Shown in pieces: positions 1,767-27,751 of a DNA stretch of 42,470 bases; the stretch's first letter is position 1; every line of letters starts with the position of its first letter. The translations under genes were made by a program, and so were the position numbers. The DNA comes from a virus (Duplodnaviria; Heunggongvirae; Uroviricota; Caudoviricetes). A model generated the notes under the pieces. The model searched no databases, was not told the origin of the DNA, and worked only from the letters and a program-made list of their open reading frames with translations. The stretch is taken from the IMG/VR virus record IMGVR_UViG_2909288124_000001; one strand, 5' to 3'.

Positions 1767-2648
1767 TTAAATGCTGGCGAACGCCATTGCCACTTCTGTA
1801 AAGCGCGATGTATACGTGTTTCTGGTCTCCGTCCTCAGATAGGGATTACCTTCGGGTAGCCGCCAGCGGAACAGCTTCTTGCCTTGCCCCACCAACCGGT
1901 ACAGTATTTCGCCGCTGAGCTTGCCGTGATTGGTTTTACCAAATAAAACCCACGTTTTGCTCTGACCCGGTTTCGGTGATTTACACCACCACCTCATCAG
2001 GGAAGCGATACCTGTACGGTATTTGCGGGCCAGCCAGTGAGCCAGCTTCCAGAACACGACACGGTCGATATAACTGAAGACTTTGGCCTTAAAATCAACG
2101 AACTGATAGAACATGGCCCAGCCTTTCAGTTTTCGGTTGAGTTGTTCAGCCATATCGACTTTGCTTTCACTGTAGTTGCCTGATAACAGTGCTGTCAGCG
2201 ATGCGGCGAAGTTTCTGGCTTTCTCCTGCGGGATCGTTGAGACCACTCGCATCTCGCCATAACGACTGCGTTTGCGAATGATCCTGTGCCCCAGAAAGAT
2301 AAAGCCGTCATTAACATGGGTGATTTTAGTCTTATCCATGTTCAGCCTGAGTTTCAGACTGCCTTCGAGCACACCCCGACACTCCTCCCTGATGGCTTCC
2401 GCCTGTGCTTTGGTGCCTTTGACGATGAGGACAAAATCATCGGCATAGCGGCAGTACGCCACCGCGGGTTTCCACTGCCAGTTTTCTCTGACCGCCGTAC
2501 TTCGGCCCCGTTGGATACTGTTATTCCAGTACCACCGATCTTTTCTGGCTTTCCCGCTCAGGTAGCGCTCATGCAGGTATTGATCGAACTCATTCAGCAT
2601 GATGTTCGATAATAGCGGCGATATAACACCGCCCTGTGGTACACCTTC
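1767..2648 (-). pseudogene. Group II intron reverse transcriptase/maturase, C-terminal fragment (RT domains 4-7 and X)
   Basis: GVPQGGVISPLLSNIML (RT domain 4) and YADDFVLIV (RT domain 5, YADD) motifs; continues upstream of the listed Met; N-terminal half is at 39616..40256. Confidence 0.8.
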
Positions 2649-2649
2649 A
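2644..2649. repeat. Target-site duplication CCTTCA, left copy (flanks prophage)
   Basis: Identical hexamer at 39610..39615; identity extends to 8 bp CACCTTCA (2642..2649 and 39608..39615) if 2 bp of each phage end are counted. Confidence 0.6.
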
Positions 2650-2727
2650 TGATGCGCCGCGCGATAAATGCACTCTATCTTGTGCGATAAATGGCATCCA
2701 CGCGGCGTTTCATTATTTGAAAAAGAA
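2650..2727. other. Prophage terminal region (Gin-proximal end) with candidate transposase-binding repeats
   Basis: Repeated GATAAATG motifs at 2663 and 2684 plus CGTTTCATTATTTGAAAAAG, reminiscent of Mu attR A-binding sites (CGTTTCACGATAAATGCGAAAA recalled from memory). Confidence 0.5.
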
Positions 2728-3300
2728 TTACATTTCAGGTTGCGTTATGACAGTCCCAACAGGGTGATAGCGGTAGATCGTTGACAGTCCAATATCATAG
2801 ATAATTGCCAGCCGCTTTCTGTCATACCCTTTCTGGAGCAATCTTGCGATCTGCTCATGCTGCTCCTTCGTCAGTTTCGGGCGACGTCCTCCAACTCTTC
2901 CTTGTGCTCGCGCAGCAGCCAGTCCAGCCAGCGTGCGCTCAACTATCAGTTCACGCTCCATTTCTGCCAGTGCACCCATCATATGAAAAAAGAACCTTCC
3001 CATCGGAGTGCTGGTATCGATTGAATCCGTCAGACTGCGAAAATTGACACCTTTTGCGCGTAGCTCTTCTGTGAGAGCAATGAGGTGTTTCATTCTTCTA
3101 CCCAACCGATCCAGCTTCCAGACCACCAATGTATCCCCTCTTTTAAGGCACTTTAAAGCGCGTTTCAGGCCTGGTCGTTCCGACTTGGTTCCGCTCATTT
3201 TGTCCTCAAAAATCTGTTCACATCCTGCGCACATTAATGCATTGCGTTGCAAATCTGTGTTTTGGTCATTTGTTGACACACGTATGTAGCCAATCAGCAT
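2728..3300 (-). CDS. gin: Serine DNA invertase (Gin/Cin/Pin/Hin family)
   Basis: From internal ATG at 3300 (RBS AAGGGAG upstream): MLIGYIRVSTNDQNTDLQRNAL...GDTLVVWKLDRLGR...ALAEMERELIVERT... closely matches Mu Gin as recalled; 190 aa; sits next to an invertible tail-fiber segment. Confidence 0.9.
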   Translation of the reverse strand: MLIGYIRVSTNDQNTDLQRNALMCAGCEQIFEDKMSGTKSERPGLKRALKCLKRGDTLVVWKLDRLGRRMKHLIALTEELRAKGVNFRSLTDSIDTSTPMGRFFFHMMGALAEMERELIVERTLAGLAAARAQGRVGGRRPKLTKEQHEQIARLLQKGYDRKRLAIIYDIGLSTIYRYHPVGTVITQPEM

Positions 3301-3354
3301 TAAAAATACTCCCTTTTGAGTGGTTAAAGTACTGAGATAATGTGGGGAGGATTT

Positions 3355-3380
3355 GAGAGATAAACGTTGGTTTGGGGGAA
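3355..3380. other. gix/hix-like recombination site A (GAGAGATAAACG-TT-GGTTTGGGGGAA)
   Basis: Hin/Gin-type architecture (AAAC-NN-GGTTT core); homology with the fiber-gene site starts exactly at the central TT; crossover would keep the fiber reading frame. Confidence 0.5.
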
Positions 3381-3800
3381 GGCTCGGCGCTGCCCGTTGG
3401 TGTACCTGTTCCGTGGCCCACTGCCACACCGCCAGCAGGCTGGTTAAAGTGCGACGGGCGCGCCTTTACAAAAGAACAATATCCTGTTCTGGCCAGAGTC
3501 TACCCGACCCTCCGTCTTCCCGATTTACGCGGTGAGTTTATCCGTGGATGGGACGACGGGCGAAAAGTGGATACAGGGCGCGATCTGCTTTCACGGCAGG
3601 ATGGTACAAGTTTTTCTCATTACGCAGGTAATTTTGACATTGGGTCTGGTCATTCAATCAATAACTATGACCAAATCGTTGACAACCAACCTGGATTCTC
3701 CCGTTTTTCATTTGCAGGTCCTTCGCTAGGCGATGGGGTTAATTATGTGACCATTCGTCCCCGTAACATTGCGTTTAATTACATCGTAAGGGCGGCATAG
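3369..3800 (+). CDS. Silent alternative tail-fiber C-terminal cassette A (collar-like domain plus variable tip; no start codon of its own)
   Basis: Encodes LGEGSALPVGVPVPWPTATPPAGWLKCDGRAFTKEQYPVLARVYPTLRLPDLRGEFIRGWDDGRKVDTGR... ending RPRNIAFNYIVRAA; in frame from crossover site A. Confidence 0.7.
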   Translation, partial: GLGEGSALPVGVPVPWPTATPPAGWLKCDGRAFTKEQYPVLARVYPTLRLPDLRGEFIRGWDDGRKVDTGRDLLSRQDGTSFSHYAGNFDIGSGHSINNYDQIVDNQPGFSRFSFAGPSLGDGVNYVTIRPRNIAFNYIVRAA

Positions 3801-3819
3801 AAACGTTGGTTTAGGAGAA
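3794..3819. other. gix/hix-like recombination site B (CATAGAAACG-TT-GGTTTAGGAGAA)
   Basis: Second direct copy of the site, 17/19 identical to site A core; followed by a second about 215-bp copy of the collar-domain repeat. Confidence 0.45.
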
Positions 3820-4323
3820 GGCTCGGCGCTACCCGTTGGTGTACCTGTTCCGTGGCCCACCGCCACACCGCCAGCAGGCTGGTTAAAGTGCGACGGGCGC
3901 GCCTTTACAAAAGAACAATATCCTGTTCTGGCCAGAGTCTACCCGACCCTCCGTCTTCCCGATTTACGCGGTGAGTTTATCCGTGGATGGGACGACGGGC
4001 GCAAAGTTGATACAGGACGTAAGTTGCTGTCCGCACAAGGGGCAACGCTGTTAAGAACAGCAATGCTGGATTATTATAACCAGGACACTACGGGAACCTC
4101 GGGGATAGTCGGCATGGGATTCAACAATGAAGATTCCATTACAGACCTTCGTGAGGGCAGCTTTAAAATGCCGGACGGGACAACATTCAGTAATCCTGCC
4201 ATGGCAATGTCAGACAATGGTATGCAGGCTACTATTCTGACCTCTATCAGAAGCGGGTATGCGAAGGGTATCACTGTCAGACCCCGTAGCATTGCACTTA
4301 ATTACATTGTGAGGGCAGTTTAA
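3808..4323 (+). CDS. Silent alternative tail-fiber C-terminal cassette B (collar-like domain plus distinct variable tip)
   Basis: Open frame from site B: same collar-domain sequence then ...KLLSAQGATLLRTAMLDYYNQDTTG...GITVRPRSIALNYIVRAV; immediately followed by a tail fiber assembly gene. Confidence 0.7.
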   Translation, partial: GLGEGSALPVGVPVPWPTATPPAGWLKCDGRAFTKEQYPVLARVYPTLRLPDLRGEFIRGWDDGRKVDTGRKLLSAQGATLLRTAMLDYYNQDTTGTSGIVGMGFNNEDSITDLREGSFKMPDGTTFSNPAMAMSDNGMQATILTSIRSGYAKGITVRPRSIALNYIVRAV

Positions 4324-4937
4324 TGAGTAACACTGCAGTTCTGGATGAAAACGGTATCGCCACTGTAGCGGGCGATATCACTGTATATCACTATGACGAG
4401 GAAACCCGGGAATACACCTCATCCTCTGTGGAGTATCTCGCCCTTGGGGTGGGTACTCCGGCACATTCGTGCGCCGATGCACCGCCGGAAGCAATTTCGG
4501 GTTACGTGGTTTGCCGGACTGCCACGCTGAACGGGTGGGAGCATGTGCCTGATCACCGCGGCGAGACGGTATACAGCACGGAGAACGGTAACCCCGTTCT
4601 GATTACCCAACCGGGTGATTACCCGGCGGACACCACCACAAAACAGCCAGCCACGCCATGGGATACCTGGAACGGTGAGGCGTGGGTAACCGATACTGAA
4701 CGGCAGCGAGCCGCAGAACTGGAGGTTGCCAGACAGCAACGCCAGCAACGGGTGAAACAGGCGATGGCGTCCGTCGATCTTATCAACCTCAAACTGCGTG
4801 CTGGTCGCAGTCTGAAACCAGAAGAAACGGCAAAACTGAACGCCGTGCTGGATTATATCGACGAGCTGAACGCACTGGATATCAGCAAGGCACCTGAAAT
4901 CAGCTGGCCGGAAGCGCCACTGGCGCTTGCCGGCTGA
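4323..4937 (+). CDS. Tail fiber assembly protein (Tfa / Mu U / P2 G family)
   Basis: 204 aa; motifs WEHVPDHRGETVY, TWNGEAWVTDTE, APEISWPEAP parallel lambda Tfa as recalled; located inside the invertible segment, currently opposite in orientation to the expressed fiber gene. Confidence 0.85.
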   Translation: MSNTAVLDENGIATVAGDITVYHYDEETREYTSSSVEYLALGVGTPAHSCADAPPEAISGYVVCRTATLNGWEHVPDHRGETVYSTENGNPVLITQPGDYPADTTTKQPATPWDTWNGEAWVTDTERQRAAELEVARQQRQQRVKQAMASVDLINLKLRAGRSLKPEETAKLNAVLDYIDELNALDISKAPEISWPEAPLALAG

Positions 4938-4943
4938 ACGGTA

Positions 4944-5894
4944 TCACGCCGCCCTCACGATATAGTTAAATGCGATATTGCGGGGGCGAGCTGATACATA
5001 AGCCCACCAGTCATATCTTTGTGCACCTTTAGAGGATGCATCAAATATCCACTTTTTGCCATTTAAGACCCCCAGTTGATTAGAGGTTAAAGCGTCACCA
5101 AATCCGTATTGTGTAGAGCCGAGCGAACTGATATCTCCGGTATCATTATCATCAAAACCGGATACGATAGTCCCTTCCTGAAATGAAAGTAGCGCACGCC
5201 CGGTATCAACCTTGCGACCACCGTCCCATCCACGGATAAACTCACCGCGCAAATCGGGAAGACGGAGGGTCGGGTAGACTCTGGCCAGAACAGGATATTG
5301 TTCTTTGGTGAACGTAGCTCCGTTGCACTGTAACCAGCCTGCTGGCGGTGTGGCGGTGGGCCATGGAACCGGTACACCAACAGGCAATGCAGAGCCTTCC
5401 CCCAAACCAAGGTAATTGAGGACATCTTTTATACTGCCCTTAGCGATAATAGCGCGACCAATAGCTGTAAGGGTTGCCAGCGCTGCGCGGTCTGCTCCGG
5501 TAAAATAAGGCAACCGATCTGCTGCAGTGGCAAGTCCTGCCAGAGCAGTGAGCGTGGCATCTGCCGGTTGTTTTCCGTTTGCCAGGTCGTATGCAGCCTT
5601 GACCGCTTTTGGTGTGGCGGCCAGCGTTTCAGAGGTGCTGTTGGTGGCACTGCTCAGTTGGGTGAACCCCTTAGCTGTCAGTGTCGCGTCCGGGTGGTTA
5701 CGGGAACGTACGTGTTCAGCCAGTGACTGTGCGGCTTCCTCCGTTTTCTTCTTCAGCCATTTCGTCCTGTTTGCCAGTTGCCGGGGGGCTCGATTTGATA
5801 TCCCGTCTGCGCCACCCAGAACCGGATCTGATGTCTCCAGTTGATAGATATTTTCTTCCCACTTTTCTGTTTCATTCAGGTTTCCCATAATCAA
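4944..5894 (-). CDS. Tail fiber protein (constant N-terminal part plus currently joined variable C-terminal cassette F)
   Basis: 316 aa; last gene of the minus-strand tail operon; contains an inverted copy of the collar-domain repeat and ends in RPRNIAFNYIVRAA. Confidence 0.85.
   Translation of the reverse strand: MIMGNLNETEKWEENIYQLETSDPVLGGADGISNRAPRQLANRTKWLKKKTEEAAQSLAEHVRSRNHPDATLTAKGFTQLSSATNSTSETLAATPKAVKAAYDLANGKQPADATLTALAGLATAADRLPYFTGADRAALATLTAIGRAIIAKGSIKDVLNYLGLGEGSALPVGVPVPWPTATPPAGWLQCNGATFTKEQYPVLARVYPTLRLPDLRGEFIRGWDGGRKVDTGRALLSFQEGTIVSGFDDNDTGDISSLGSTQYGFGDALTSNQLGVLNGKKWIFDASSKGAQRYDWWAYVSARPRNIAFNYIVRAA
5397..5422. other. gix/hix-like recombination site F inside the tail fiber gene (inverted relative to sites A and B)
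   Basis: Fiber-strand sequence CTCAATTACC-TT-GGTTTGGGGGAAGG; right half-site and downstream identical to site A, left half-site unrelated; TT falls on codon positions 2-3 of Leu in ...NYLGLGEG... Confidence 0.5.
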
Positions 5895-6469
5895 CTGCTC
5901 CCGTGGTTATAACTGCCATCATGGATGGCGGTATTGTTATAGCGAATGGCCACAGACTGATACTCCAGGCTGGCCAGATGGCAGCGGGCCGGTGCAAATG
6001 CAGCCAGCGTCTGACGCAGCATCGCGGCCTGATCGTTAGTAATGGGCTGTTTCAGAATAACGCGATAAACTGCCCAGGCGGCTGCATCTCCATGAACAAA
6101 CAGTCCGTTATAGCTGCGATTGCCGTCGTAACTGAGACGACCTGTGCCTTCAATCAGATCCACTTCACCAAAGCCAAAACGGCGGATAACTTCCCGGATT
6201 GACCACGGCGTCCCTTTATACCGGTGCAGTTCGATGGCTGCTTTTATAAGCATGCGGCGAACATCGTCCGATTCCGCCAGCTCCCAGCCATCGCCAGACA
6301 GTGAGAACTGCTCGCCCAGCCATGGCAGCGCGGAACTGTCGACGATATCGACGAGAAAGACCATCAGTACGCTCAGGTCGATGTTATCCAGCCGTCCTGC
6401 CAGTCTTCCCAGCGTCCTGAGACTGATATCACCCTCAAGCGGTGGCGGGAGTTGTAATGGCTCAGTCAT
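5891..6469 (-). CDS. Baseplate/tail protein, P2 gpI-like
   Basis: 192 aa, position between gpJ-like and tail fiber genes, consistent with P2 gpI / Mu gp48 (assignment by synteny and size). Confidence 0.65.
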   Translation of the reverse strand: MTEPLQLPPPLEGDISLRTLGRLAGRLDNIDLSVLMVFLVDIVDSSALPWLGEQFSLSGDGWELAESDDVRRMLIKAAIELHRYKGTPWSIREVIRRFGFGEVDLIEGTGRLSYDGNRSYNGLFVHGDAAAWAVYRVILKQPITNDQAAMLRQTLAAFAPARCHLASLEYQSVAIRYNNTAIHDGSYNHGSS

Positions 6470-7565
6470 CAGACACTCCAGTCATGTTAAGAGTGATTGC
6501 CGTACAGTTTGCCCATTCGTTTTCTGCCACCACCCGCAGTGCCGGTGTCACCAGTTCAACCTGGTACACCCCGGAAACGGACAATGCACTGATAATCTGG
6601 CTGGGGACAATATCGCGCCCCAGCGTGGCGGCACGTGATGCCACCCAGTTCTGTATGGCGCTGTTAGCGGCATCTTTTACAGACCTGGCATCCTGATCAC
6701 GATAGATCGTAATCCTGGCTTCAATGGTGTAATCCACCTTCACTGGTGTTTTAGCCCGCACTGTATCAGTGAGTGGCCTGACTTTCTCATCAGAGCAGAA
6801 ACTCTCTACCAGCGTGAGAACACCGCCGTCCGGCAGACCGGTACTGAGCAGCGGATACAGATCTACGGTCCCGGGAACCGGGGAAAGCACAGCAACATCG
6901 ACAATGTTGGGATGGGCCTGCATGGCATGAAAGCGGTATGCGCCACGGCTTCCGGCATTGGTGAATGACTCCGGGGCCAGCCTGATACGCTCCCGGAGCC
7001 TGTCATCGTCTTCCTGTTCTGAACCGCCGGAACTGGCCGTCAGATTGCTCACCAGCAGGTCGACGTTATCAATCTCATCGAGTAACTGACTGACCTGCGC
7101 AGGTTGCCAGCCGTTACCAGCGGTACCGGGTTCGGTACAGGTGGACGTGACATTGACCAGCAGCAATCCGGCCTTCAGTACCACATCTGTATCGGTGGCA
7201 AAAATAACGCTGTCGGAAGCGCTGACGCGGGTGCCTGCCGGGATCAGCACATCAATGGCCAGTGCCTCATCTACGGAGAACTGGAGCGTGGTAGTGGCAG
7301 GCTGCGCGGCAAGACGGTATACACCGACCAGTTCACCGAGGTAATCAATCATCGGCTCACGGGCAAAGGCGACCAGATTCTGCTTTGCTGCCTCCTGTAC
7401 CGCAACCCTGACCAGCATTTCGCGATAGGCCCACAGATCAATCAGCAGACGTTCTGCCTGTGCCGGGTACAGCGTTTTGCCGGTATCCGCTTCATACTTC
7501 GCAATCATTTCTGCCGTGATTTTGTCGGCATCGCGTTCAATAAAATCGGGTTCTGTCAGCGCCAT
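6462..7565 (-). CDS. Baseplate protein J-like (P2 gpJ / Mu gp47)
   Basis: 367 aa ORF in conserved W-J-I order upstream of the fiber gene. Confidence 0.75.
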   Translation of the reverse strand: MALTEPDFIERDADKITAEMIAKYEADTGKTLYPAQAERLLIDLWAYREMLVRVAVQEAAKQNLVAFAREPMIDYLGELVGVYRLAAQPATTTLQFSVDEALAIDVLIPAGTRVSASDSVIFATDTDVVLKAGLLLVNVTSTCTEPGTAGNGWQPAQVSQLLDEIDNVDLLVSNLTASSGGSEQEDDDRLRERIRLAPESFTNAGSRGAYRFHAMQAHPNIVDVAVLSPVPGTVDLYPLLSTGLPDGGVLTLVESFCSDEKVRPLTDTVRAKTPVKVDYTIEARITIYRDQDARSVKDAANSAIQNWVASRAATLGRDIVPSQIISALSVSGVYQVELVTPALRVVAENEWANCTAITLNMTGVSDD

Positions 7566-10807: not shown

Positions 10808-13758
10808 CAGCGGTACTCCTTACGTTGTTTCTGAGCCAGCAGACGCTCCAGCATTTTTTCCAGCTCATGCAGGCTCATATTCAGGGCGCCAGTCAGTCCG
10901 GCAGGCGCTGTGGTTTCCCTGCCATTGAGGAAAAACTGAGGATTAAAGCTGACCTGGATACCACCAGACGTTCCACCGCCGGTTGCAGCTGCACCACGGT
11001 CTGAATATCCGGCAGCCATGATTTCAGGCGAGGGGATACGGGGAACATCCGGTGTCATCTCATTTGCCAGACGTTGCCCTGGTAAAATCGATGCCCGGGT
11101 GGAGAGCGGGATAGCGGGCATGGAAGACAAACTATTGATTACGGCTCCGATCGCATTTTTAGCAGACGACATAAACCCGTTGATATCGGGCAACGGCATA
11201 CTGAAGCGAACACCTGAAGTGTTATCCCGTATTTCTGGCCCCTGAATGCTCACGGGCATTCTGGGGAGCAGTTCACTGGCCATTCGCTGCCCGGCCAGAG
11301 CTGCAAGCGGAGTGGTCCGCTGCAGGCCAATGGCGGCCCCCTGCGCGATATTGTCACCAAAGCCCATAAACACGCGGCTCGGCGAATGAATACCCAGCTT
11401 TTCACTGAACCAGCCACTGATGCTGTCACCCATTCCGGTTACACTGGATTTGAGCGACTCCCATTTGTTTTTGATACCGTTAATCAGACCGTCGACAAGA
11501 TGGCCACCGAAGTCGGTGAACTTTGCCGGCAGATCAACACCAAGATATTTCAGCGCAGCTGCAAAGGCTTTATAGAGCAGACCTGCCGGCGACCAGTTAA
11601 TCAGCAGCTTACCAGTTCCCGCGATACCGCCGTTAAAGGCTTCCTGAATGTCAGCCCAGCACTGTTTAAACCAGCTACTGATGCTGTCACCCATTCCGGT
11701 TACACTGGATTTGAGCGACCCCCATTTGTTTTTGATACCGTTAATCAGACCGTCGATAAGATGGCCACCGAAGTCGGTGAACTTTGCCGGCAGAGCAACG
11801 CCGAAATATTTCAGCGCAGCCGCAAAGGCTTTATAGAGCAGGCCTGCCGGCGACCAGTTAATCAGTAACTTACCAATTCCCACAATGCCGCCGTTAAAGG
11901 CTTCCTGAATGTCTGCCCAGCGCTGTTTAAACCAGCCACTGACTGCCCCCCAGTTGCGGTAGATAAGGTAAGCTGCTGCCGCGACAGCGGTGATAACGAG
12001 ACCGATGGGATTCATCATCAGCGCACGTCCAATCCAGAGAACAGCACGTCCGGCGAGCATAATTCCGCGAACCAGCCCCCCGGAGAGCACGCCACTCAGT
12101 GTTCTGGCTCCTCTGGCGACGGCGCTAAATCCGGTCACCAGCCAGCGGAGCTTACCGCCTTGCCCCAGTGCGAGCGACAGACGAAGCCAGTTGGCCCGAA
12201 GTAAAACAGCATTTTTCCAGACACTTACAAAGGGGGAAATAAGGAGATTCAGCCCCAGTTTGAGACCAACAGTCGCTATCTTAATCGCAAGGAGCGCACT
12301 GATGAGCTTAAAAGCCCCACTGACAAATTGCGGGTGAGTCGCTACCCAGTGTTTTGCCCCCTGAATGAGTGGAAGCAGTTCCTGAGTCAGAGAAATAAAA
12401 GATGGAGCTAATTGATCGCCCAGCGTAATTGCCAGATCGCGACTGCTGACCATAAGTGTTTTAGTGGCTTCAAGGGGAGATTTCAGCCGCTGATCATAAG
12501 CACTGGCAAGCAAATCGTTATCCGCAGCCCTGAGAGCACCGGCACGGATCTCTCGATATCTGTCCATGTTGGCCAGCATCGGGCGGATAAATGCCATGAC
12601 CTGCATATCCGCGAACATATCGCCCAGACCAAAGTTTTTCGCCAGAGCCTGAAGTGCCTCATCTCTTGCCGTATCATTCTTTATTTTCATGGCTGATTTG
12701 AAGCCGGCCAGCGCTTCGGGGCTTTTGGCATTGAGGTAACGTTCTATAACACTCAACATCCCTTCAATCGGAGAGATCCCCGCAGCTTTATAACTCGCAA
12801 TAGATCCCTGCAAATCAATACCCAGATCAGCAAACTGTTTCTGAGTATCGCGGGCAAAAATTTTGGTAAGAAAGTTTTTAAAATTATTGGCTGCTTCGTC
12901 GGTGGAACCTGCACCGATTTTTGCTATCTGGAGACTGGCCCCGATTTCAGCAACAGCCTCTTTTCCACTGGCAATACCCGCCATCATTGGGGCCAGGGAC
13001 TGCATCCACTTGACCTGATCCGGGATTTCAAATGACCCCTGGTCACCGGCATAAGCCATAATATTCTGAACGGCACCAAAATCTCTGGCCGCACCTTTCA
13101 GGGAGTTTTGCCAGACTGCGGCCACTTTTGCCCAGTCCTGAGCAGACGTGCGTGTTGCCGTTGCCGCGCGGGCAATATCCGGCATCAGAAAACCGATATC
13201 TGACACATTATCAATATTGTCGCTGATGAGTGAACCCACCGCCTCCTGCAGCTCATCCTGATACTGATTGTATTTAAGCGCCCAGCCTTTTATCTGTCCG
13301 GCAAGTCCATCCCGCGTTTTATTGTCATATTTTGCGGTGATCGACATATCAATCATTTTGTCCTGAAAAGACATGGACTGCTGAACGGCAGGGGAAACCG
13401 TATGATAAACAGTCTGTGCCATGCCATACGCTTCAATCCCCTGACCATACAGCGCCATGCGGTTAGCTTTCAGCGCATCACTGGTAGCGGATGCCGCTGA
13501 CAGACGGCGCTGCTGGCGCTCAATTTGCTCCATGGTGCGGCTTACCCGCAGCAGCTCGCTGTTGAGATACTGCATCCGGGAAGAACCCAGTTGACCATAA
13601 CGTTCTGTTGCACGGGTTAAAGCGTTCTGACGTTCCTGCAGGCGGCGTGAGGTATCGCTCAGGGAATCAAGCGCACGGCGGGTACCGCTCATTGCAGAAC
13701 GGAATGTGCTGCCAATCATCCCGCCGATAACAACGCCGACTGAAAACTGTCCAGACAT
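10807..13758 (-). CDS. Tail tape measure protein
   Basis: 983 aa; ATG at 13758 with GGAGGT RBS; follows frameshifted chaperone gene; hydrophobic and coiled-coil segments; carries an internal in-frame 261-bp tandem duplication. Confidence 0.85.
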   Translation of the reverse strand: MSGQFSVGVVIGGMIGSTFRSAMSGTRRALDSLSDTSRRLQERQNALTRATERYGQLGSSRMQYLNSELLRVSRTMEQIERQQRRLSAASATSDALKANRMALYGQGIEAYGMAQTVYHTVSPAVQQSMSFQDKMIDMSITAKYDNKTRDGLAGQIKGWALKYNQYQDELQEAVGSLISDNIDNVSDIGFLMPDIARAATATRTSAQDWAKVAAVWQNSLKGAARDFGAVQNIMAYAGDQGSFEIPDQVKWMQSLAPMMAGIASGKEAVAEIGASLQIAKIGAGSTDEAANNFKNFLTKIFARDTQKQFADLGIDLQGSIASYKAAGISPIEGMLSVIERYLNAKSPEALAGFKSAMKIKNDTARDEALQALAKNFGLGDMFADMQVMAFIRPMLANMDRYREIRAGALRAADNDLLASAYDQRLKSPLEATKTLMVSSRDLAITLGDQLAPSFISLTQELLPLIQGAKHWVATHPQFVSGAFKLISALLAIKIATVGLKLGLNLLISPFVSVWKNAVLLRANWLRLSLALGQGGKLRWLVTGFSAVARGARTLSGVLSGGLVRGIMLAGRAVLWIGRALMMNPIGLVITAVAAAAYLIYRNWGAVSGWFKQRWADIQEAFNGGIVGIGKLLINWSPAGLLYKAFAAALKYFGVALPAKFTDFGGHLIDGLINGIKNKWGSLKSSVTGMGDSISSWFKQCWADIQEAFNGGIAGTGKLLINWSPAGLLYKAFAAALKYLGVDLPAKFTDFGGHLVDGLINGIKNKWESLKSSVTGMGDSISGWFSEKLGIHSPSRVFMGFGDNIAQGAAIGLQRTTPLAALAGQRMASELLPRMPVSIQGPEIRDNTSGVRFSMPLPDINGFMSSAKNAIGAVINSLSSMPAIPLSTRASILPGQRLANEMTPDVPRIPSPEIMAAGYSDRGAAATGGGTSGGIQVSFNPQFFLNGRETTAPAGLTGALNMSLHELEKMLERLLAQKQRKEYR
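11410..11932. repeat. In-frame tandem duplication (2 x 261 bp) within the tape measure gene
   Basis: 11410..11670 and 11671..11931 near-identical; encodes duplicated 87-aa block WFKQ(R/C)WADIQEAFNGGI...GMGDSIS. Confidence 0.8.
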
Positions 13759-14251: not shown

Positions 14252-14348
14252 GATTGTGCTCCTGTGTAAGTTCAGGGCAGTATGTCGGGAGAAGCGCGTG
14301 ACGGATATTAAAGGAGATTAAGAAGAAGGGGCCGGAGCCCCTGTGATG

Positions 14349-27637: not shown

Positions 27638-27751
27638 GTGTGTCTCCTCGTTTGGTGGAGACAGCATCACAAATGTGGCGGGATACGGATTTTAAACAGC
27701 GTTAATAGTGAAGATGTAAACGTGCACTGCATGATGACTTTGAAAGAACGA

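Follow-up and report, generated by a model that had tools for sequence, protein, structure and literature searches.

A single tail fibre assembly gene in a three-site invertible fibre array of a Mu-like prophage, and how its product may be shared

We analyzed a DNA stretch of 42,470 bp from a tailed virus (IMG/VR record IMGVR_UViG_2909288124_000001), the whole of which is called the window here. Our subject is the late-tail end of a Mu-like transposable prophage (2649-6469, the right end of the prophage), where a tail fibre gene (4944-5894, minus strand) meets the tail fibre assembly gene tfa (4323..4937, plus strand) tail-to-tail. The locus belongs to the EC958 Phi2 family, whose invertible fibre region has been published, and it is a multiple-inversion array of the Min (p15B) type. 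The element itself is already known from publication, and in design it agrees with the arrays of Min type on P1-like plasmids. From the comparison with related loci, we think that Tfa is probably a chaperone shared among the fibre cassettes and not specific for cassette B, which precedes it, and that cassette F, which is joined to the fibre gene at present, probably needs Tfa. Our explanation of the convergent arrangement is tentative, and we give it a probability of roughly 0.45: the shared Tfa would be directed at the collar of the fibre tip, F would depend on it, and in this isomer Tfa would be supplied outside the late fibre transcript. In the literature accessible to us, we found no discussion of the need of the cassettes for the single Tfa, or of its expression when it faces the late operon.

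The invertible array and its single tfa gene

The tfa gene codes for 204 residues, of which residues 79-199 match Caudo_TAP (PF02413, E=5.6e-27). A tblastn search of the whole window, in which 30 or more Tfa sequences of different types served as queries, found no second Tfa gene; a second tfa elsewhere in the prophage was therefore rejected as a source of the protein. An earlier note on this DNA had called 4323..4937 the only Tfa-like gene, and this statement holds for the 42-kb window. The same note had described tfa as converging on the fibre gene with the stops 6 bp apart. The stop codons agree exactly with this description, because the TGA of tfa lies at 4935-4937 and the fibre stop at 4944-4946, and exactly 6 bp (4938-4943) remain between them. 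The placement of tfa inside the invertible segment directly after cassette B was also borne out by the presence of an invertase and three crossover sites, and by the overlap of the B stop with the tfa start as TAATG. This overlap indicates that B is translationally coupled to tfa.

The invertase gene (2728..3300, minus strand) codes for a Din-family serine DNA invertase of the Gin/Min-like kind (Resolvase, E=8e-51; HTH_7, E=1e-12). It is transcribed in the direction of the late tail genes and is located beyond the invertible segment. The protein shares 77% identity with Gin of Mu, and 81-83% with the invertase of a P1-like phage that carries a Min-type array. Since the gene is highly identical to Mu gin, a Fis-dependent recombinational enhancer is likely to lie in its 5' part.

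Three crossover sites of 26 bp were read from the sequence, and the central dinucleotide is TT in all three. Site sA (3355..3380, plus strand; GAGAGATAAACG TT GGTTTGGGGGAA) has the same sequence as Phi2_3prime, which is listed in Table 3 of Forde 2014 (PMC4134206). Site sB (3794..3819, plus strand; GGCATAGAAACG TT GGTTTAGGAGAA) overlaps the stop codon of cassette A, and its right half-site, GGTTTAGGAGAA, is the half-site found at the constant/B junction in EC958. Site sF (5397..5422, minus strand, on which it reads TCCTCAATTACC TT GGTTTGGGGGAA) marks the junction of the constant and variable parts of the fibre gene, and its left half is that of the Phi2_5prime site of EC958. The sites match the family consensus, are in inverted orientation, and keep the reading frame where the constant and variable parts meet. 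Around them are inverted repeats of 229-244 nt with 86% complementarity, and the homology of many E. coli genomes breaks exactly at 5410-5413.

Three alternative 3' cassettes begin at the sites, one at each, and all of them have a Collar domain (PF07484, E=6.5e-16 to 3.1e-15). Cassette A (3372..3800, plus strand; 142 codons; Collar E=6.5e-16) is silent and has a short variable insert. Its frame is open to the TAG at 3798-3800, it ends with RPRNIAFNYIVRAA, and no tfa follows it. Cassette B (3811..4323, plus strand; 170 codons; Collar E=1.8e-15) is also silent and has a longer insert. Cassette F (4944..5408, minus strand; Collar E=3.1e-15) consists of Collar plus insert, is the current 3' part of the fibre gene, and likewise ends with RPRNIAFNYIVRAA. 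In the Protein Data Bank, F matched the short tail fibre 9cuy (E=6.5e-17) and the collar of T4 gp37, 2xgf (E=3.8e-13). The common build of the cassettes is a collar part of 70 residues, followed by the variable insert and the conserved end RPRN(S)IA(F/L)NYIVRA. The collar parts of A and B are identical in protein, and that of F is 93% identical to them.

The collar-coding 5' parts are homogenised within the array (3372-3600, 3811-4030 and 5185-5405; about 97% identity in DNA between A and B), and they are strongly diverged between arrays, with a synonymous divergence (dS) of 1.3 to over 4 between the window and the cassettes of a four-cassette relative, L009. The variable part of F is far closer between arrays than the collar part, with a dS of about 0.4. 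These observations suggest concerted evolution of the repeat, exchange of cassettes, or both.

Because Din-family invertases recombine inverted sites only, we used this rule to enumerate the isomers of the switch. The three sites give four states, in two of which tfa is convergent, and all four were present in public genomes. The window and ST131 strain 18044 (L001) are in state 0, constant-F with convergent tfa. State 1, constant-B-tfa, is that of EC958 (L003) and of L019. State 2, constant-A-F with convergent tfa, was found in Ecol_656 (L095), and state 3, constant-A-B-tfa, in L016. No site separates F from tfa, and therefore F is never co-transcribed with tfa in any isomer. The earlier expectation that inversion would bring tfa into one transcript with the fibre is thus correct as to the orientation of tfa, but the fibre then carries B or A, never F. 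Among complete E. coli genomes, about 206 had the convergent arrangement versus about 326 with the co-oriented one; these counts are approximate because the search joins nearby same-strand pieces, and at least one genome has two copies in different states.

Three loci depart from the simple picture. In E. coli strain 1438 (NZ_CP184040.1) the switch apparently occurs twice, at about 3145019-3149155 and, some 60 kb away, at 3209017-3210974; one copy is in the convergent and the other in the co-oriented state. At L082 (9569-11832), constant-F faces tfa-B, and beyond them comes another constant-like fibre segment, oppositely oriented. This may reflect either a genuine inverted duplication or faulty assembly at the switch. 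At L012 (9401-11003), constant-V2-B-tfa are all co-oriented and no invertase was detected in the following 5 kb, so that this locus may derive from the array by locking or deletion.

We compared the array with known systems of several kinds. The likeness to Phi2 of EC958 is very close. The region is 99.6% identical in nucleotides to the E. coli ST131 (sequence type 131) prophages, and the crossover sites are identical, with the same invertase, cassettes and tfa. For Phi2, the PacBio assembly of EC958 gave alternative contigs differing by inversion within one culture (Forde et al. 2014, PMC4134206). That paper describes two sites and a 2067-bp segment for Phi2, and a figure legend covering Phi1, Phi2 and Phi4 jointly presents the alternate alleles as mirror images with a cognate minor fibre gene. 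The mirror-image legend is not accurate for Phi2, which has three sites and a single tfa. The EC958 reference sequence differs from the window in being constant-B-tfa, whereas the window is constant-F, and the constant part of the window is 336 bp shorter.

The Min system of p15B and of P1-like phage-plasmids, studied by Sandmeier, Iida and Arber in 1990-1992, reportedly has more than two crossover sites, overlapping segments and a Din-family invertase, and in p15B it is said to offer several alternative 3' ends for one fibre gene. We used P1-like plasmid sequences, together with this background, for the comparison with Min. The window has the corresponding features, namely three sites, overlapping invertible segments and three alternative 3' ends. 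The P1-like arrays of pZ0117EC0062-2 and pMS6198C likewise have collar cassettes, among them one with 85% identity to A, and they have one tfa, which is 56% identical to that of the window. The window differs in having only three sites and four isomers, and in belonging to a Mu-like transposable prophage and not to a P1-like plasmid prophage. For the six-site relative L059, the enumeration gave 240 isomers, which is the number reported for Min of p15B; the locus of the window is accordingly a small array of this type.

The G segment of Mu (and the C segment of P1) resembles the array in its place at the end of the late tail operon and in the co-directional invertase gene that comes next, whose product in the window is the one 77% identical to Gin. 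In Mu, too, the crossover site is inside the fibre gene at the constant/variable boundary, and Phage_fiber_2 repeats are shared. However, Mu has two sites, two variable parts and two mirror-image chaperone genes (U and U'), whereas the window has one tfa. In addition, Mu S has no Collar domain, and Mu U has no BLAST similarity to the Tfa of the window.

The earlier note missed several of these features, namely the three-site, four-isomer array of Min type, the publication on EC958 Phi2, and the permanent tail-to-tail position of F. It also missed the generic appearance of Tfa.

Cassette partners of Tfa

Homologues of Tfa numbered 1495 at E<=1e-10, and nearly all of those named by their source are called "tail fiber assembly protein". 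In the AlphaFold2 model of Tfa (mean confidence score pLDDT 89.8), residues 1-123 form a beta-rich N-domain, and two long helices make up a C-terminal hairpin. For the Tfa family, a passage in PMC9608196, citing North 2019, describes an N-domain that binds the fibre tip and a C-domain that drives trimerisation. Nearly all of the homologues P0001-P0120 have a precomputed Pfam hit to PF28596 besides Caudo_TAP, and PF28596 was not among the hits of the local Pfam scan of the window Tfa. This family may be a model for the conserved N-domain of Tfa.

In order to see what Tfa follows, we compared unique pairs of cassette and Tfa (n=28) by pairwise identity. The identity of the Tfa N-domain (residues 1-125) was at least 50%, with a median of 61%. 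The variable inserts of the partner cassettes were unrelated (median 24%), the collar parts of the cassettes were 68-100% identical, and the median for the C-domain of Tfa was 36%. A Tfa 89% identical to that of the window follows a very different tip in L011, and one 72% identical follows a different cassette type in L009.

Cassettes resembling those that have no tfa of their own in the window were found elsewhere together with one. In the P2-like prophage L010, a cassette of the F type, 85% identical, is directly followed by its own Tfa. This Tfa is 56% identical to that of the window over the full length, and L010 has no other collar-type cassette for it to serve. The A-like tips of mEp043, 500465-2 and vB_EcoM-683R1 each have their own Tfa as well. 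Thus, the N-domain keeps at least 50% identity whatever the partner insert is, and tips like F and A are accompanied by a Tfa of the same family; these two results are the basis on which we regard Tfa as probably a shared chaperone and F as a cassette that probably needs it. The pairs of the Stf/Tfa and H/G types (mEp043, 500465-2, L010 and L011) resemble the window in their collar-type tips and in the Tfa family, with 38-89% identity and a conserved N-domain. They differ from it in that each collar-type tip examined in these lambdoid and P2-like pairs precedes its own tfa, whereas two of the three tips of the window have none.

We also surveyed how often the layout with one tfa occurs. Related loci encoding tail protein I at 74-100% identity (n=80) were mapped with tblastn, and loci from other searches were added. 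Two layouts were seen among them. One is the mirror, in which a cassette and its tfa face another tfa and its cassette (for example L032, L040 and L070), and the other is the array with one tfa. The Mu-like arrays of the second kind contain two (L013, L024), three (L016, L019), four (E. coli 8178, L009) or six (L059) cassettes, and in L013, L024, L016, L019, L009 and L059 the cassettes are intact, with 10-13 bp between neighbours. The same layout is present in the P1-like plasmids pZ0117EC0062-2 and pMS6198C (L093, L094), in the P1-like phage vB_EcoM-673R5, and in a contig of Klebsiella phage KP12. The identity of their Tfa to that of the window is 72% in L009, 56% in the P1-like elements and 41% in KP12. 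At least one tfa is present at each related locus whose fibre region is intact. Judging from these sequences, the single-tfa layout is a stable, recurrent design. Across species representatives of Enterobacterales the mirrored layout is dominant, and when GTDB was scanned with a Tfa alignment, most of the loci obtained were P2-like switches of the mirrored kind, and additional arrays were not among them. L028, a candidate for a fibre without any tfa, was rejected, as the locus is disrupted by an IS26-like insertion that we identified by eye from the transposase sequence.

Within the arrays, the link between cassette and tfa depends on the cassette type. The B type was followed by this tfa in all ten occurrences and the c1 type of L009 in two of three, and cassettes of the F, A and V2 types were almost always without tfa. 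Cassettes of the same types are shared among Mu-like, P1-like, P2-like and lambdoid phages. The A type, for example, occurs at 85% identity in the P1-like pMS6198C (L094 3063-3491) and at 57-62% in mEp043 and 500465-2 (L004, L005). Between two arrays in which it has no tfa, the variable part of F shows a ratio of nonsynonymous to synonymous substitution rates (dN/dS) of 0.13-0.15, at a dS of about 0.4.

Supply of Tfa in the convergent orientation

The explanation that we prefer starts from the switch described above, in which the Gin-like invertase recombines the three 26-bp sites, so that the fibre gene combines its constant 5' part with any one of the three receptor-binding cassettes of collar type. 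Tfa would recognise the collar module that is common to all cassettes, and not the variable insert, and cassette F would therefore still depend on Tfa. In the constant-F isomer, Tfa would then have to come from a source other than the late fibre transcript. One candidate is a plus-strand promoter, possibly activator-dependent, on the invertase side or inside the silent cassettes. Other candidates are sister copies of the phage in other isomeric states in the same induced cell, and related Tfa proteins that other prophages in the cell encode. Should a single Tfa be able to fold every tip of collar type, the host range of delivery phages of the Mu, P1, P2 and lambda types could be engineered by exchanging tips while the chaperone stays the same. 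A more far-reaching form of this explanation, which we consider rather unlikely, is that Tfa is a universal collar-binding chaperone for an expandable array of chaperone-less cassettes and is supplied in either orientation, for example by a second entry of transcription from the invertase side. If this is true, tfa would be read from whichever end it faced, which is a regulatory solution not described for switches of the Mu or P1 type, and new fibre tips could be added to such phages without a matching chaperone.

Several results speak against the explanation that we prefer. A scan of 2600-6600 for sigma-70 promoters gave no site, where 4.4 were expected by chance. In a position-weight scan, the top scores of the tfa-linked cassettes were 7.4-8.6 and stayed within the null distribution (median 6.2, 90th percentile 8.8); they were no higher than those of the tfa-less cassettes, and nothing rose above background along 3301-4325. 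The window type and the L009/P1-like type share no conserved spacer between invertase and first crossover site. The motif TTTAA(A/T)ATCC, which may be the -10 element of the late promoters, has just two copies in the window (14303-14312 and 27687-27696, minus strand; 0.45 expected by chance), each time between genes and upstream of a block of late genes, and it is absent from the switch. Since the stops are only 6 bp apart, late transcripts would run antisense through tfa. The fibre-binding role of the N-domain is inferred by analogy, and neither sequence search nor fold search linked this domain to the solved Tfa of Mu. The mirrored relatives, and Enterobacterales generally, keep one tfa for each orientation even though the N-domains are alike, which suggests that co-transcription matters. 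Finally, F could have been conserved by selection acting in other phages, with the cassette transferred afterwards. The earlier note had proposed to look for an independent promoter in front of tfa. No sigma-70-like site above background came to light, and an activator-dependent promoter is still compatible with these scans.

Some further candidates and signals were considered in this region. An extended -10 sequence, TGaGATAAT (3333-3341), was picked by hand and rejected, as it is not conserved in the spacers of L009 or of the P1-like elements. A hidden gene antisense to tfa and co-oriented with F was rejected also, because the long antisense frame is lost in L009, L010 and L093. A terminator-like hairpin with a T-rich tail lies antisense within tfa (4827-4846, minus strand), some 100 nt past the F stop. 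Such a hairpin could limit antisense read-through, but the region contains no more terminator-like hits than expected by chance.

The earlier note had left two possibilities for the present orientation, namely that F folds without a chaperone, or that the particles are assembly-deficient or have a different host range. This choice was too narrow, and its first side is disfavoured. An assembly-deficient isomer would mean that F needs Tfa, that tfa is silent when it runs against the late operon, and that induced cells release fibre-defective particles; the cost would be tolerated for the sake of a cheap, expandable cassette array, like that of an isomer whose host is absent. About 40% of the lysogens with this prophage would then release non-infectious particles on induction. 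The lack of a promoter-like signal for tfa in the present orientation fits such a dead state, as do the mirrored relatives with a tfa for each orientation and the F-like tips that bring their own Tfa elsewhere, and since inversion in a lysogen is outside the selection on the phage, the roughly 206 convergent genomes do not show that the state is viable. However, the tail-to-tail cassette of every one-tfa array could then never work, and yet it is intact in all arrays examined, and the dN/dS of the variable part of F is low, as given above. Half of the states would be dead in the two-cassette arrays (L013, L024 and KP12), and half of the 240 states in the six-site array. Assembly deficiency is thus hard to square with so many arrays that keep intact tfa-less cassettes, and we regard it as doubtful. 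The other possibility is that F and A fold without Tfa, which would be needed only by B or would stay on the B tip, so that the orientation means a different host range. This would agree with the linkage of tfa to particular cassette types (the B type and, less strictly, the c1 type of L009) and with the translational coupling of B to tfa. The Tfa of Mu is reported to stay on the mature fibre (PMC9608196). It speaks against chaperone-free folding that the 85% identical F cassette and the A-like tips at 57-62% identity each precede an intact Tfa of the same N-domain family elsewhere, and this weakens the earlier proposal for F. The similarity of the Tfa N-domains is moreover independent of the partner insert, a near-identical Tfa partners tips unrelated to B, and no related phage has lost tfa completely. 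On the other side, the collar-domain fibres gp12 and gp37 of T4 are not known to need a Caudo_TAP protein for folding. On balance, we think that folding of F and A without Tfa is unlikely.

The layout might also require no function at all, if a classic mirrored switch of the Mu type had recently decayed in a defective prophage and a second tfa after F had been deleted. Mirrored switches with two tfa genes are the commonest layout among the relatives, and the prophage of the window sits among fragments of insertion sequences (IS) and of an intron. Such a decay is nevertheless very improbable, because the compact layout recurs in diverged lineages with different cassette sets (the Tfa identities of 72%, 56% and 41% mentioned above) and the spacing is tight, both between the cassettes and between the stops of F and tfa. 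The fibre reading frame and all cassettes are intact, and the prophage retains genes for transposase, MuB-like ATPase, Gam, Mor, terminase, sheath and baseplate, with an end that matches the ST131 copy. No graded remnants of tfa were seen between F and tfa in the relatives, and 6 bp leave no room for them.

Fibre gene and prophage setting

The late tail genes on the minus strand are ordered baseplate J, tail protein I and fibre gene. Tail protein I, a baseplate wedge protein (5891..6469, minus strand; Tail_P2_I, E=1.2e-24), is encoded by the last fixed gene upstream of the fibre, and the late transcript enters the switch from this side. The fibre gene is an intact open reading frame with a Phage_fiber_2 repeat and a Collar domain by Pfam. 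Its true start is probably the ATG at 5886-5888, directly past the stop of gpI. The constant 5' part (5409..5894, minus strand) contains one repeat found by Pfam (Phage_fiber_2, E=3e-21). The fibre of the window has 316 residues versus 428 in the ST131 copy L001. That is, it is shorter by 336 bp in frame, or 112 codons, which correspond to two Phage_fiber_2 repeat units (window 5580-5660 versus L001 6961-7217). L013 and L018 have more repeat units, and the fibre shaft accordingly shows an in-frame length polymorphism. In the RefSeq record NZ_AP022326.1 (L001 6245-7531), the fibre gene is annotated as two pseudogene fragments despite its intact frame of 428 codons, and this looks like an annotation artefact arising from the repeats together with the invertible junction.

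In a blastn comparison, the homology of the prophage end (2649..2727) to the ST131 copy begins at 2649, with TG as the first letters. The left flank (1-2648) contains a fragment of a group II intron reverse transcriptase/maturase (1767-2600), which adjoins the prophage end, and farther out a fragment of an IS3-type integrase (1219-1614) and an IS256/Mutator-type transposase gene (1-1191). In the ST131 copy the same prophage end adjoins aroA, at a different chromosomal site, and this difference of insertion sites fits a transposable phage. The window also codes for an rve-type transposase, a MuB-like AAA ATPase, Gam, Mor, terminase, tail sheath, baseplate proteins and tape measure protein. The record of a related phage, PhiKM, is classed as Bcepmuvirus. 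The tape-measure gene contains a 261-bp tandem duplication (11408-11942; 2.0 copies, 93% match), by which a block of 87 residues is doubled in frame.

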